Of a DNA stretch of 64,000 nt, positions 154 to 57,780 are shown piece by piece (positions within the stretch are counted from its first letter, which is position 1; every line of letters begins with the position of its first letter). The stretch is from NCBI GenBank assembly GCA_951406725.2, contig OX597836.1:11718001-11782000 (forward strand), in the 5' to 3' direction. The stretch is from Octopus vulgaris. Lineage: Eukaryota. Made by a program: the position numbers and the translations under genes. The notes beneath the pieces are model-generated. The model worked only from the letters and a program-made list of their open reading frames with translations. It did no database searches and had not been told where the DNA came from.

Positions 154-198
<45 letters not shown>

Positions 199-285
199 GA
201 TAATTTACTGAAAGCAAATGACGAAGACAGGTGAAGGAACAACAAGCAGGTGTAGTAATTTCACGCTTGGAAAGAACAGAAAAGT

Positions 286-321
286 CTTTGATGTTTCGAG
301 CCTATGCTCCTCGACAGAAAG
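286..321 (-). ncRNA. Second copy of the CUGU minimal hammerhead variant
   Basis: cttt CTGTCGA g GAGC atag GCTC GAAACATC aaag. Confidence 0.55.
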
Positions 322-330
322 GATTGAGGG

Positions 331-377
<47 letters not shown>

Positions 378-12632: not shown

Positions 12633-14015
12633 TATGTTTGACTTTTGCTTTATATTTGTACAAGTTGGCTCCAAGTCTCACCCAGAGACCTCAAGAGACA
12701 ACAGGGTTGGAAGTTCATGTTGTTGTTATGCCTAGTGTGCCATATATTTGGGGGGTGGGGATGTTGTACTAATGAATGTCTAAAAAGAAAAAGTTTTTTT
12801 TTTTTTTTTTTAAACCGAAAATTATGTTTGTTTTAAACCTTGAGATTACATAGAGAGTATTTTGCGTAGGATATGAGCAGTTCCCATGAGCACTATCTTT
12901 TGAACTTCTGCCATTTTTGGTTTCCTGGTATCTGAGTTAGGTAGCTATCAGCCCTTTTGCTATCATTCCCAGGGCACCTATGACAACAGGTATTGTTTTA
13001 GTCTTCAGCTTCCACATTTTGCTGATTTCTATTTCAAGATCTTTATATTTGCTCAGTTTTTGGTAGGTCTTGACAGATACGTTTATATCGATTGGGACAG
13101 TCATATCAATGAGGAGGCATGTTCTTTGTTTGAAGTTTTTCAATATGATGTCTGGCCTATTTGCATCTATCTTCCTGTCAGTTTGAATGGTGAAGTTCCA
13201 GAGGAGTGAGATGTGGTCATTTTCAAGCACTGGGGGTGGTTTGTGTTCCCACCAGTTTTTTTCATGGGGCAAATCCAGGTTTTTACAGATTACCCAGTGA
13301 ATATATTGTGCAGCTCTATCGTGCCTGTTGAGATACTCTGTAGGCGCTAGAAGACTGCACTTGGAGACCACATGGTCAATGGTTTCATTTGTTGCTTGCA
13401 TACACGACACGTTGGACTGCTTCTGATCTTTAATATGTTGGCCTGGTAGTTTCTTGTTGGTAGGCATTGATCTTGAGCTGCTATGATAAACCCCTCTGTT
13501 TCAGATTTTAAGCCAGAGGCCATTAGCCATTGATGGGTCAGGGCTTTGTCGATATCTGCATTATTCGCTCTCTTTGGGTATTTGCCATAGAGAGGTTTTC
13601 TTGCCATTTATTATTCAGAATATCTAAGGCCGCAGTTTTGGCACGGGTTTTCATGCGCCTAGCTTTTTCTGTGCTTGTTTCTTGTATATCTATCTCCGAA
13701 ATTGGTTGTATTCGGAATTCACTTAGATATTCCTTTGCCTGTTTTGTGACTGAGTATGATGCTTTCTTGTTTTCATGTTTTGAGACAAGTTTTAGCATCC
13801 AGTCCTCAGAGTTTTCAGGTAGGTGTCTAGGCCAATTGTAGCAATCTTCATTGTTATTGCCAGTTGCAAAAGACCACGGCCTCCCTCTTTTCTTGGCAGA
13901 TAGAGTCGTTCTGTATCTGCCTTAGGGTGTGCATTCTATGCATTGTCAACAGTTTCCTTATTTTTCTGTCGAGCTGACATATTTCAGTAATTGACCAGTT
14001 AACAATATTGAAACT

Positions 14016-14018
<3 letters not shown>
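12632..14018 (-). mobile_element. 5'-truncated R4/Dong-type non-LTR retrotransposon (restriction-like endonuclease), frameshifted
   Basis: Minus-strand peptides YSFNIVNW...RLYLPRKEGGRGLLQL, ETEGFIIAAQDQ, CRVC...ETIDHVVSKC, RHD, RPDII...LIDMTVP...KLSKY, GTAHILRKILSM* (stop 12846-12848). (TAA)n tracts abut both ends. Confidence 0.92.
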
Positions 14019-14082
<64 letters not shown>

Positions 14083-14096
14083 CATCATCATCATCA

Positions 14097-14172
<76 letters not shown>

Positions 14173-14210
14173 CATTACTATTATTATTACTATTATTATT
14201 ATTATTATTA

Positions 14211-14253
<43 letters not shown>

Positions 14254-14326
14254 CATCATCATTATTATTATTACTATTATTATTACTATTATTATTATTA
14301 TTACTATTATTATTATTATTATTATT

Positions 14327-14545
14327 CAGTAGTTTTATTTTTATAGCGTGCTTTCACTGCACTACCGAGCGCAGCTCTGTGTGCTTTGGGTATGTGCTGT
14401 GATTTGTTGTGATGCTCTGATGGTTATTGTATGGAAAGTGTTCTGCGTAGGATGTGTGCAGTGCCTAGTAGTGCAATTTTCTGTATGTTATATGTGTTTG
14501 TAAGTCCTGGTGTTTTTGTTATGTATTTGTATGAATATTTTTTTA
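14327..14545 (-). mobile_element. 3' fragment of a second R4/Dong subfamily
   Basis: KYITKTPGLTNTYNIQKIALLGTAHILRRTLSIQ* C-terminus with a different 3' UTR. Embedded in (TAT)n on both sides. Confidence 0.8.
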
Positions 14546-14639
14546 TCTTTTTTATAATAATTATTATTATTATTATTATTATTATTATCATCATCATTAT
14601 TATTATTACTATTATTATTACTATTATTATTATTATTAC

Positions 14640-14699
<60 letters not shown>

Positions 14700-15499
14700 C
14701 ATTATCATCATCATCATCGCAGCCACCGCTATTAATCGTTCATTATCAGAAGTTTGCTGTACTTTGACATGGCCACAGCCATTTCATTGGCTGATGTTGT
14801 TACATGATCAGTCAAATCAACAGTCCTGGGTCACACTTCATAGCTCGCCCATTGTTACGAAGTCAGTGCAAACGATGACGTCAGGAGCTTTGAACCGGAA
14901 GTAATTATAGGTCAAGAGCTCATAGCTTCTGTGCAGTAGGTTATCCACATTTGATAGTTTTTCTCTTCATTTGATATCAGGCTGGTTGTGGCGGCGTGGC
15001 GATGCTTTTGCTTTCATTACAATCGAAACACAGCGGTTCTACGCTGACGTTCAATATGCTAGAAATAACAGTCATATCACCCTCAAATCACGTGCAATCG
15101 CCTTGGAGCGGAGAGGTGACATTAGATTATGTAATTCTAGATATATTGTATTTGAAATTAAGATGGGATGGTCGATGCAGGAATTTTATCAATTAGCGCT
15201 CGTTGTATTAACTTAATTAATGTTCTTACCCGATGTGAGTGTTTAACCTTTGCCTGGCTCTAAACGAGCAGATTTATGATCAACGACGTTCCAGCCACGA
15301 CTATACAATCTTTTTTCTTAACAAAGTACAATGTATGTATATATATATATATCGTGTACATTAAAACACATTAAGAGGCTTCAAAATAGGAAAGCCTTGT
15401 GCTAGAAAGAGCAGTAGAAAACTCAAACCACTAATTAGAGATAAATTCTCGAAAAGAATGAAAATAAAAACGTTTACCATCTAATTTAGTTCCTAGACC

Positions 15500-21037: not shown

Positions 21038-21079
<42 letters not shown>

Positions 21080-21260
21080 TTAATCCAAACAAGAAAACAA
21101 AAACAACAACGCAAGGATGTGGAACAAATAAAGTATTATTGGACGCTCTTCGTCGGAAACATAGGAGAAGGAAAGATCCCGAGAAGGAAAGATCCCGAGA
21201 AGGAAAGATCCCGAGAAGGGAAGACGGGAAAAAATCGCTAGTGATACAGACGAGGTCACA

Positions 21261-21302
<42 letters not shown>

Positions 21303-21388
21303 AGGATTCATAAAAAAACAAAAGACGAACAGGTGGTGTAAAAAGAAACAGATGAATTAGTATAACGCGCTCAAGGGATTGAAAAGTT

Positions 21389-21424
21389 CTTTGACGTTTC
21401 GAGCCTACGCTCTTCCACAGAAAG
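21389..21424 (-). ncRNA. 36-nt minimal hammerhead variant (CUGU core)
   Basis: cttt CTGTGGA a GAGC gtag GCTC GAAACGTC aaag, with ACGT palindrome and GUC triplet. Confidence 0.65.
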
Positions 21425-21616
21425 GAACACAAAAGAAACAAGGAGAGAAAAAAAATATATATTAATTTTTATATAAAGATGCTGAGATATGACCAGCGTT
21501 GAACCCCTTATTCGCATAATCACCGAACCTGGAACTTAACTGTGGTCCATCTATAGCACTTATTCAGCATTAACTAACACCTTTGGGTCTCAATGACACC
21601 ATTGACTCTCATAGCC

Positions 21617-23979: not shown

Positions 23980-25020
23980 CCTGTTTGATACAATTTTAAG
24001 AATGTACTCAGTTTTATCATATCAATTACGGATGTTGTTATAATACTATTTACATTAACCAGGTTATATTGATGTTCGTATCTGTTCCCAATAAGTCTAT
24101 AGCGACCACATTTTATGCTTTTGTTTTCTATACATAATTCCTGTTGTTTTATCGTCGAAGTTTTATTTCGGGAGAGTCTTCTTTTCATTCGTCAATCCAC
24201 GAGAAAAATTCCATCGATTTTAATTCTTTAACTGTTGCCAGAATTACACTATTTTTCATATTCAAAATTATTTCCCTCTTTCAGAATTTTCTACTCTTAG
24301 ATCTTTCTAGCAGTCTTTCTGTTCATATTTTTAGTCGGTGTAATTCTGGTGTGTCTTTTGTTGGTCGATATCTTGTAGGTACGACTGAATTTGATTTCGC
24401 TATTTTTTCGCCATTTTGTATTATATATCTTTATCATTTAATTTTATTTATTTCCTTATTGTACTTGATCTTATCTTCGTGACTTACGTTCTTCTCAACG
24501 TTTGCAACATTAATATTGCTATTTTTTTTCTTTTATTTTAGTTTCACTTTTCAATGCTTATATTTTTTGCTGTTTGCTTCTCGTTTGTTACTCATATTTC
24601 TTTTTTACGTATACTTCCACTTTTTTTCTTTAATGTTCTGTCTGATATTTAGATTTAAGAATGATTTTTTTTTTCCTGAAATTAACGAGTCTGTTTCGGT
24701 CTCAAAACTATTATTAGATCGCGGTTTCGGTTGCTTTATGTTTCTATTTACATTAGTCTCTCTTTATTCTTTACCATATATCTCCATCTTTTATTTATAT
24801 ATAATCTGTGTGTTCTACAATAGGTATGTTATAATGGCTTCTGGCTGCAGATCTCCCGCGCCTTTCTGTTTGTATTTTCTTTGAGCATTCATTCTATTAA
24901 GCGTTCTATTTCTGTTCCTGGTGTTTTGGTACTAAGAATGTTATTTTCATAAATAACTTGGATTGTTAAGGGTCAAAGTAATTTCATACTCCGTCCCTAC
25001 ACACGCTACCCAAACATTGA

Positions 25021-25890
25021 TTTCAAATTTTGGCACCAGGCCAGAAAGTTCGAGAGAGGGAACAAGTCGATTACATCGACCCTATTTGTTCAACTGGTAC
25101 TTAATTTATCGACCCTAAAAGGATGAAAGGCAAAGTCGACGTCGGCGGAATTTGAACTCAGAACGTAACGGCAGACGAAATACCTATTTCTTCACTACCC
25201 ACAAGAGAGGACAAACAAGGACAGACAAACGGATTAAGTCGAATACATCGAGCCCAGTGCGTAACTGGTACTTATTTAATCGTCCCCGAAAGGATGAAGG
25301 GCAAAGTCGACCTCAGCGGAATTTGAACTCAGAACGTAGCGGCAGACGAAATACCTATTTCTTTACTGCCCACAAGGGACTAAACACAGAGAGGACAAAC
25401 AAGGACTGACAAACGGATTAAGTCGATTACATCGACCCCAGTGCGTAGCGGCAGACGAAATACCGCTAAGCATTTCGCCCGGCGTGCTAACGTTTCTTAT
25501 TTCTTTATTGCCCACAAGGGGCTAAACACAGAGGAGACAAACAAGGACAGACAAAGGGATTAAGTCGATTACATCGACCCCCAGTGCGTAACTGGTACTT
25601 ATTTAATCGACCCCGAAAGGATGAAAGGCAAAGTCGACCTCGGCGGAATTTGAACTCAGAACGTAACGGCAGACGAAGAAATAAACACAGAGGAGACAAA
25701 CAAGGCAGACAAAGGGATTAAGTCGATTACATCGACCCCCAGTGCGTAACTGGTACTTATTTAATCGACCCCGAAAGGATGAAAGGCAAAGTCGACTTCG
25801 GCGGAATTTGAACTCAGAACGTAACGGCAGACGAAGAAATAACTCTAAGCACTTCGCCCGGCGTGCTAACGATTCTGCCAGCTCGCCGCC
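25021..25890 (-). mobile_element. Multimer (~5 units) of the third SINE family
   Basis: Repeated GAAAGGATGAAAGGCAAAGTCGACCTCGGCGGAATTTGAACTCAGAACG blocks, with a single head at 25890. Confidence 0.87.
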
Positions 25891-46490: not shown

Positions 46491-47328
46491 TAAATGATTA
46501 TTCCGGGGCATATTCACCATCTACTTCAGTTTCTGCTTTCTATTTGCTTGGCAGACGGTCGGAATAATCATTTAAAGATGTTTTTGTTAAATGCTGTTTT
46601 GGCTTTGTCGAATAAAACTTATTGAAAAAAAGCCGCAATAATTATGCACCAACCTCATATAAATACATATTTCTTTATTGCCCTCAAGGGGCTAAACACA
46701 GAGAGGACAAACAAGGACATACAAACGGATTAAGTCGATTATATCGACCCCAGTGCGGTAACTGGTACTTAATTTATCGACCCCGAAAGAATGAAAGGCA
46801 AAGTCGACCTCGGCGGAATTTGAACTCAGAACGTAACGGCAGACAAAATACGGCTACGCATTTCGCCCGGCGTGCTAACATTTCTGCCGGTTCATATAAA
46901 TACAAATCATATTTGCCCGCAGAGCGGACTTGAATAACGTGAAATAAAGTGTTTTGCTCAAGAACACAACACGCTGCAAGTACTCGAACTCACTGCCTTA
47001 CATTTACAAGCCAAATACCTCTAACCACTAAACCACACGCTTAACCACCAAGCCAGTGTCCACTAGACAGCATGTCAGGTGATGGAGAGTAACAATACTT
47101 CCGTTTCTCATTCAGTCTCTTTCTGTCTGAACATCTCTCCTGTATATTTATCTCGTTCGCTAAGCTTACATTTCCGTGTGTGAGGTGAACTCAGCCAACC
47201 AAGATAATATCACTTCAGACTTTAATTCATACATACTTTAGCACCAATGTATTAAATTGGAAGCTGGTAATTTAATAATCATTCACTCTTTGACAATAAG
47301 TAGGTCTACCATCGTACACGTAGGTGGT

Positions 47329-47814: not shown

Positions 47815-48450
47815 ATCATATTCTGAGTTCTATTTCCCTGTTTGCATCATCATAACTATATACACGTGCATGCAAATGAGTGTAACTGCGTGTCTGTATA
47901 AATCTTTGTATGTACTTTTAGATATCTCATGTATATATATATATATATATATGCACGTATGCATACATTCTATGTATACACGTCTTAGCATACATAAATC
48001 TGTTTATCTGTGTATACATATATGTAAATATATGTATGTATGTGTGTGTATGTGTATTGTTTGATTGTGTGTGTATAGAGAGAGAGAGATATGATATATA
48101 CACACATTTATATGCATTTATATGAGTGTACGCATATATCTACGTGTGTAGTTGTGTGTGTGTATGTGAGTTCGGGCGTGTGTGTGTGTGTGCGTGTGTG
48201 TTGTGTGCAATTGAATGTAAATAATATTCACTTCAGATTGACAAAAATTCGTAGCACCCAGCACCTGTTGTGCCATTGTGCAATCTCTGTGATTTAATAT
48301 CTGCCTTACGACTCAAGTTATCCACTCGAGTTTCATGTTCGATTATCTGCTACACCCAGCTTTCCTCCATATTTTGACAAGAGCTTCTTTAAAACATTAA
48401 ATCACTAAATATGAAACTTATTTAAACTCTCTTTTACTGATTTATTTGCT

Positions 48451-53147: not shown

Positions 53148-53795
53148 TGAGTAGGCACAAGGCCCCGAAAATTTGGGGGAGGGGGCAGTCGATTAGATCG
53201 TCCCCAGTAAGCAACTGGTACTTAATTTATCGTTCACCTAAAGGATGAAAGGCAAAGTCGACCTCTTCGGAATTTGAACTCAGAACGTAAAGACAGACGA
53301 AATTCCGCTAAGCATTTCGCCCGGCTTGCTAACATTTCTTATTTCTTTTTGCCCACAAGGGGCTAAACATAGAGGGAACAAACAAGGACAGACAAAGGGA
53401 TTAAGTCGATTACATCGACCTCAGTGTGTAATTGGCACTTAATTTATCGACCCCGAAAGGATGAAAGGCAAAGTCAAACTCAGCGGAATTTGAACTCAGA
53501 ACGTAGCGGCAGACGAAATACGTATTTCTTTACTACCCAAAAGGGGCTTAACACAGAGCGGACAAACAATGACAGACAAACAGATTAAGTCGATTATATC
53601 GACCCCAGTGCATAACTGGTACTTATTTAATCGACCCCGAAAGGGTTCGACCCTAGTGCATAACTGGTAATTATTTAATCGACCCCGAAAGGATGAAAGG
53701 CAAAGTCAACCTCAGCGGAATTTGAACTCAGAACGTAACTGCAGACGAAATACCACTAAGCATTTCGCCCGGTGTGCTAACGATCCTGCCAGGTC
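53148..53795 (-). mobile_element. Trimer of the third SINE family
   Basis: Three AAGGATGAAAGGCAAAGTC...GGAATTTGAACTCAGAACG blocks. Confidence 0.83.
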
Positions 53796-57284: not shown

Positions 57285-57580
57285 AGTGTATGTATGTGGG
57301 GGTCTTTGTTCTGTGTTTGTTCCCGGTGTTGGTATGTTTACGCACTCATAACTTAGCGGTTCGGCAAAAGAGAACGATAGAATAAGTACGATTTGCTCGA
57401 CTAAAGGCGATGCTCCAGCATGGCCGCAGTCAAAAGACTGAAGCAAGTAAAAGAGTAATAGAGAGTAAAGGGTATATATATGTATGTGCATGTATAAGGA
57501 TGTATATATATATTGAATCGTTAGCCCCTACACGCAATTTTTTTCTCTCCTTGTTTCTCTCTTTGTTTCCTTTCTGTGTA

Positions 57581-57618
57581 TCTTTCTGTCTAAGAGCGTA
57601 GGCTCGAAACGTAAAAGA
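57581..57618 (+). ncRNA. Third copy of the CUGU minimal hammerhead variant (G8 mutated)
   Basis: tcttt CTGTCTA a GAGC gtag GCTC GAAACGTA aaaga. Confidence 0.55.
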
Positions 57619-57713
57619 CTTGTTTTATTTCTATTCCTGAGCGCCATACTAATACATTATTTGTTTGTACTCCACCTGCCTTCGTCTTTTGTTTATTTTC
57701 ATAAACCTTCCCG

Positions 57714-57780
<67 letters not shown>

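Follow-up and report, generated by a model that had tools for sequence, protein, structure and literature searches.

Minimal type I hammerhead ribozymes occur in metazoan Penelope-like elements (PLEs), where they have been reported to cleave weakly and only as dimers (PMC4209133); the core variant described in that work is U3-A8, and the role of hammerheads in these retrotransposons has been called unclear (PMC8557442). A natural hammerhead with the substitution A6C is slow in Mg2+ yet active, above all in Mn2+ (PMC7151607). In this study, we describe a hammerhead motif with U at core position 6 (CUGU rather than CUGA) that is present three times in a 64,000-nucleotide (nt) stretch of the Octopus vulgaris genome (assembly GCA_951406725.2, contig OX597836.1, positions 11,718,001 to 11,782,000), hereafter called the window.

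The motif lies in the pseudo-long terminal repeat (pLTR) of a Neptune-type PLE. We consider it likely, with a probability of roughly 55%, that it is a slowed, dimer-dependent self-cleaving ribozyme, and that its lineage fixed the change from A6 to U early while keeping the other constrained positions.

The CUGU motif in the genome and in the window

Across 2.8 Gb in 227 contigs, an exact 26-nt pattern with every letter but position 6 fixed returned 18,078 matches, with T at that position in 17,377, A in 218 and C or G in 483. Reversed-pattern controls gave 0 genomic matches, and therefore the motif is not a product of chance. A sequence-only reading of the window had proposed that CUGU is a family trait and not decay. 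The genome-wide consensus is indeed CUGU and not CUGA, and the youngest copies and both pLTRs of the element likewise read CTGT, all of which bears out the proposal.

A structural scan of both strands of the 64 kb (CTGN, a 4-bp stem II, GAAA, UH and a 4-bp stem I) found three matches in total, each of them CTGT. They share stem I (CTTT/AAAG), stem II (GAGC/GCTC) and GAAA, and their triplets are AUC, GUC and GUA, just as the same reading had reported. Two of its coordinate pairs, 286-321 and 21389-21424, are also right (minus strand); the third copy occupies 57582-57617 and not 57581-57618. The features of the window that concern the motif are listed here.

21300..21455, minus strand: focal pLTR fragment, the 5′-truncated 3′ end of a Neptune-type PLE by its sequence, linked to the open reading frame (ORF) via longer relatives
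21389..21424, minus strand: minimal type I hammerhead of the focal copy, from sequence and structural scan, numbered by the published consensus
21424-21421/21392-21389, minus strand: focal stem I
21420-21417, minus strand: focal C3-U4-G5-U6 (U6 = 21417), followed by G7, G8, A9 and A9a
21412-21401, minus strand: focal stem II with GUAG loop
21400-21397, minus strand: focal GAAA; helix III is the palindromic A-C-G-U
21393, minus strand: focal C17, with the predicted cut between 21393 and 21392
21265..21299, no strand: (TA)n target tract at the 3′ end of the focal element, with the same 3′ junction in relatives
196..332 (ends approximate), minus strand: second copy, from an old basal side lineage
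286-321, minus strand: second-copy hammerhead, CUGU-C-GA-G, loop AUAG, ACAU, AUC
57513..57714 (ends approximate), plus strand: third copy, from a younger subfamily
57582-57617, plus strand: third-copy hammerhead, CUGU, with a private G8 to U change

Position 6, with its U, is where the family departs from the canonical CUGA core, whereas the other box positions (C3, U4, G5, N7, G8 and A9) conform. G12, A13, A14 and A15.1, U16.1-H17, and stems I and II with G10.1-C11.1 are all present, and the palindromic 15.1-16.1 segment, the lack of a helix III of its own and the extra nucleotide 9a are those of PLE minimal type I hammerheads. A (TA)n tract follows about 90-110 nt 3′ of the predicted cleavage site in the CUGU family. 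The other two window copies have further changes: the second has the non-palindromic ACAU in place of ACGU and G at position 9a, and the G8 to T change of the third disrupts C3-G8. Identity between the focal copy and these two is 78% over 152 nt and 75% over 114 nt, and the nearest genomic relatives of the focal copy are 86-89% identical to it. Judged by their sequences, the three window copies are truncated fossils within (TA)n tracts.

A sister family has an identical stem II and ACGU with a 3-nt loop 2. Among the 100 matches listed of its 5,455 in the genome, position 6 is A in 96 and T in none. Three related sister-family copies (L126, L127 and L145) carry G17 together with A6 (two) or C6 (one), possibly as a small non-cleaving side branch. 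The window itself holds a broken member at 21071-21206 (minus strand), about 100 bp from the focal copy and in the same orientation, which reads CCGA-CGAA-GAGC and, through a deletion at GAGC microhomology, continues directly in the 3′ tail, with the right half of the hammerhead lost.

Family history was traced in a tree of 216 3′ ends, built with position 6 masked, with 35 sister-family copies as outgroup and with CUGA and CUGC copies deliberately enriched. The 181 copies with a GUAG loop form a ladder with moderate support near its base (0.68-0.97). A small basal group consists of four CUGA copies (L031-L034), one CUGC and one CUGU; the remaining CUGA and CUGC copies are dispersed within CUGU clades, as private changes would be. 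The 286 copy of the window belongs to a basal side group in which A, C and U are each represented by one copy, and because that group mixes all three bases, its U6 may be independent of the main fixation. Along the ladder, N7 appears to have changed five or more times and H17 about four, which exceeds what approximately 0.3 changes per synonymous site would lead one to expect; parallel lineages, recombination and tuning of a competing hairpin are candidate reasons. Other CUGA hammerhead-like motifs with different stems, in the flanks of L024:895, L040 (minus strand), L066 (minus strand) and L076:1156, represent further families.

Probable selection on the hammerhead fold

Evidence for selection was drawn from allele counts and from pairwise shared differences among observed copies, and a column was called variable if its second allele reached at least 15%. 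Among 85 distinct copies anchored on stem II (set S1) and 57 anchored downstream (set S2), the variable motif positions are N7, with four bases, and H17, with A or U. None of the other 34 positions varies, and motif alleles at 10-13% are CpG transitions; the two middle palindrome positions fit ACGU in 74 of 85 copies each, the remainder being mostly CpG transitions. In the downstream flank, 16 of 76 columns are variable (19 at a 10% threshold; Fisher p = 0.002 against 0 of 34). The motif is thus more conserved than its flanks, contrary to one of the outcomes that would have spoken against a family trait, and its rate of change is also below that of synonymous positions in the ORF.

As a neutral yardstick, we used sites at which two older CUGU copies share a letter other than that of the youngest copy, in nine pairs. 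Such shared differences amount to 11-27% at fourfold sites and 3-5% at second codon positions, and under the fourfold yardstick the probability of 0 changes in 34 positions is 2e-5 to 0.02. These figures bear on the idea of neutral hitch-hiking, according to which a successful master copy took along a dead ribozyme whose motif was unselected. In a young family, descent makes every copy look conserved, and with few master lineages, copy counts are not independent events. However, synonymous sites differ between subfamilies by up to 27% with the 34 motif positions unchanged, and the flanks did change, so hitch-hiking is very improbable.

The location of the changes is informative about what has been kept. 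Between subfamilies, N7 and H17 are the sole positions to have changed among the 14 that are outside Watson-Crick pairs, and these are the two left free by the hammerhead consensus (PMC7151607, PMC4209133). Because only these moved, selection seems to have acted on the hammerhead fold and not merely on a hairpin. This pattern points to a motif under selection for the hammerhead fold. The sequence-only reading had offered either a functional core variant or a ribozyme-derived structure retained for retrotransposition, and within that alternative the pattern of change favors a selected hammerhead fold. G17, which blocks hammerhead cleavage, is found in 120 exact copies against an estimated 14,000-15,000, that is, at background, though A to G is a transition. 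Between the CUGU and CUGA families, the stems covary at 6 of 8 pairs, with a misalignment in one of 19 rows. We also considered that the pyrimidine tract might act as a splice acceptor and set this aside, as N7 varies freely and nothing supports it.

The carrier retrotransposon

The carrier is, to judge from its coding and terminal sequences, an autonomous, recently active Neptune-type PLE inserted in (TA)n, where the clade is assigned by described features and the linker motif is also found in Nematis. Longer copies extend upstream into coding sequence, and the motif has the sense orientation, with an ORF for reverse transcriptase (RT) and endonuclease about 0.5-0.7 kb upstream of it. When 30 loci were picked by their coding part, at least 20 had a sense-strand motif downstream, nearly all CTGT. 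The youngest subfamily is 97-99% identical across 1.4 kb, and its long copies have an identical CTGT-TGAA motif in 30 of 30. Two pLTRs, 4,522-4,565 bp apart and both with CTGT, were found in 7 of 15 long young loci; one upstream pLTR copy among these seven has the change G8 to T. The upstream pLTR extends 320-1,085 nt 5′ of the hammerhead and joins the 5′ untranslated region (UTR) at an identical TTATATAT junction in 7 of 7. The 3′ terminus of the element is at (TA)n, about 110 nt past the predicted cut.

One locus, L240, has a single ORF open over 1,179 codons, with RT followed by GIY-YIG. Its RVT_1 match passes the cut-off (E = 1.5e-7, 31.8 bits against 29.6), and its GIY-YIG match is below its own (E = 0.007, 17 bits against 22.6). 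The translation has a CX4CXXC linker, and CSRPRCRTC, CISC, EH and RH are seen in it. A retrozyme or a short interspersed element (SINE) was ruled out as the source of the copies, which are 5′-truncated ends of a coding 4.5-kb unit and not non-coding tandem monomers. In a search of 30 loci, no ORF of the CUGA sister family was found (tblastn gave one match, on the opposite strand).

Several further observations concern the ends of the element, its 5′ UTR and its occurrence. Many copies (L002-L030) are 5′-truncated at one place, TCGCCATGATAG, after (TA)n and about 70 nt upstream of the hammerhead; this site is a strong truncation or template-switch hotspot. The 5′ junctions of L074, L050 and L006 carry short pieces, in inverted orientation, of the final ~30 nt or more of the element, the usual mark of PLE insertion. 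In the 5′ UTR of L240, about 260-320 nt past the upstream hammerhead, a stretch conserved across subfamilies (TTGATGTGAAATCC...ATACACCACGACGTC) is faintly hammerhead-like (UGAUG, GAAA, ACGUC). Finally, sequencing runs under four organism labels contain 80% or more of the words from the pLTR and 5′ UTR of the youngest subfamily, and for this reason the lineage may be common to related species.

Elsewhere in the window, a CUGA hammerhead-like match at 48449 (plus strand) has no clear stem I and may be due to chance. A dispersed SINE-like repeat family of about 200-300 bp is represented at 1171-1388, 25000-25873, 46668-46885 and 53237-53787 and is also abundant in the retrieved loci. A general repeat search of the window was dominated by microsatellites. 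An Rfam scan returned no hammerhead among 150 listed of 348 matches, and those matches were microsatellite-driven.

Proposed slow cleavage, its rivals and known systems

If the motif cleaves, a read-through transcript would carry both pLTR motifs, and these would pair via ACGU to form helix III, by analogy with PMC4209133; the predicted energy of the ACGU duplex is -1.7 kcal/mol. U6 would slow the reaction twice, through the loss of A6 contacts and through a predicted UGU/ACG off-state hairpin, and occasional slow cleavage would release unit-length RNA. The junctions suggest that reverse transcription is primed from the nicked (TA)n target at an internal UAUAUA downstream of the cut, and that it then passes the hammerhead. 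Because priming would occur 3′ of the cleavage site, and inserted copies continue for 320-1,085 nt beyond the upstream hammerhead, the template would have to be either a re-ligated circle or uncut tandem RNA, and a slow ribozyme would permit either. Perhaps the octopus lineage even represents a natural A6U class whose cleavage in vivo is tuned to a low rate, although we propose this only tentatively. One core change would then both weaken the active site and fold the monomer into the off-state hairpin, and since retrotransposition would need some cleavage, but not too much, this throttle might have been retained while the lineage, which is autonomous, very abundant and still young, expanded.

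The same predicted hairpin can be read differently. In it, U4-G5-U6 pairs with A15.1-C-G, the strand required for helix III of the dimer. Pairing probabilities computed on 36-nt fragments give the predicted G5-C pair a median of 0.80 in 103 CUGU copies, against 0.10 and 0.02 in GUAG-loop copies with CUGA (8) and CUGC (9) and 0.0 in 23 CUGA copies of the sister family. This difference also speaks for a loss of catalysis with A6U, after which the motif would have served as a non-catalytic RNA handle, either a rod-like hairpin or a hammerhead shape, bound by the RT-endonuclease of the element or by a host factor, with uncut tandem transcripts as the template. Such a handle is possible, if on balance doubtful. 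Naiad PLEs spread without canonical hammerheads (PMC8557442), and the CUGU lineage is about three times as large as its CUGA sister family in exact matches, though the patterns used for the two differ.

Several points weigh against slow cleavage, and some of them fit a handle well. Genomic copies that start at the predicted cut were compared with those that start at a control site, with rows judged by eye. The 5′ ends do not pile up at the cut, as about 21 of 6,464 (independent events, from 24 of 74 rows) compare with about 65 of an estimated 15,000 (from 62 of the 100 matches listed, 105 in total), with p = 0.29 and no positive control. A single incidental copy, L156, begins precisely there. 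On this evidence, a common linear cleaved template is excluded, and a circle is not separated from an absence of cleavage. In four folded monomers, the predicted U6 hairpin is 0.4-2.5 kcal/mol more stable than the hammerhead fold. Loop 2 and position 9a are also invariant, which is compatible with protein binding, and the stems are invariant within the CUGU lineage, with no compensatory change. In addition, the S1 search pattern fixed 19 of the 34 motif positions, and the 15 unbiased columns alone give p = 0.06; those 19 were checked free of that bias in 57 mid-age-subfamily copies anchored downstream (set S2) and in ORF-selected copies. The selection that we infer is for the fold, and U6, being a single site, cannot demonstrate selection of its own. 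In published work, A6C lowered a fast ribozyme to 3.6e-6 per min at 0.3 mM Mg2+ (PMC7151607), and in saturation mutagenesis of another hammerhead, CUGA-turn mutants were weakly active and unrescued (PMC9901934).

Other observations argue against a handle. The non-Watson-Crick changes are confined to the two positions that hammerhead chemistry leaves free, and a simple hairpin gives no reason for C3, U16.1, G8 and G12 to be invariant while N7 varies freely. Moreover, G17 would give the hairpin an additional C3-G pair, yet it founded no subfamily. We keep slow, dimer-dependent cleavage as the preferred explanation. A related explanation is that the ribozyme is conditional, near-silent in Mg2+ and switched on by Mn2+ or by the protein of the element, much like A6C. 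It might draw on the greater than 10,000-fold Mn2+ preference of A6C in one ribozyme (PMC7151607) and on the host factors proposed for PLE minimal hammerheads (PMC4209133). However, the precedent has C and not U at position 6, and its authors doubted the biological relevance of the Mn2+ effect (PMC7151607), and we regard this explanation as improbable.

No study of an A6U hammerhead or of octopus PLE hammerheads was found in the literature searched, whose scope stopped short of Lünse et al. 2017 and supplement file 1 of PMC4209133; the excerpts of PMC11014351, PMC10085705 and PMC6155905 make no mention of A6U. Thus, A6U is apparently a new core variant of a known PLE hammerhead, a status that Lünse et al. 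2017 could overturn. The octopus genome offers a natural matched pair, in which an autonomous U6 lineage stands against A6 sister and basal lineages with the same stem II and palindrome. If CUGU cleaves, dimeric hammerheads can do without A6, and searches whose descriptors require CUGA overlook ribozymes by the tens of thousands. If CUGU proves inactive, strong selection maintains a hammerhead-shaped RNA in an active PLE for a function other than catalysis.

The element as a whole resembles the Neptune PLEs (Craig et al. 2021, PMC8557442) in its RT, its CX2-5CxxC linker and its GIY-YIG domain with CCHH-type residues, and also in its partial-tandem pLTRs, short inverted pieces and (TA)n targeting; unlike the published description, its hammerhead core is non-canonical. 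With the short-stem-III PLE hammerhead variants (reviewed in PMC6765202), the motif has in common PLE association, a diminished stem III and cleavage as a dimer, the last of these predicted here. It is most like the metazoan PLE minimal type I hammerheads (Cervera & de la Pena 2014, PMC4209133), with their U-rich lead-in, 4-bp stem I, 9a, G10.1-C11.1, GAAA, palindromic 15.1-16.1, NUH and position in both pLTRs; ACGU is the commonest palindrome in Fig. S3 of that work. The consensus there is CUGANGAH, with A6 kept in the 44 of 44 rows compared (of 56 in Fig. S3), whereas the octopus lineage has fixed U6. A natural substitution at position 6 is shared with the A6C hammerhead of phage Bcep176 (Perreault 2011, PMC3088659; Naghdi 2020, PMC7151607), in which cleavage is slow but detectable and is rescued by Mn2+. 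That case is a single phage sequence with C, whereas the octopus motif, from a eukaryotic retroelement, has U and exceeds 17,000 copies. Unlike Bcep176, it is also helix-III-less and of the dimer type, with evidence of selection at the level of a lineage and with a predicted competing hairpin.
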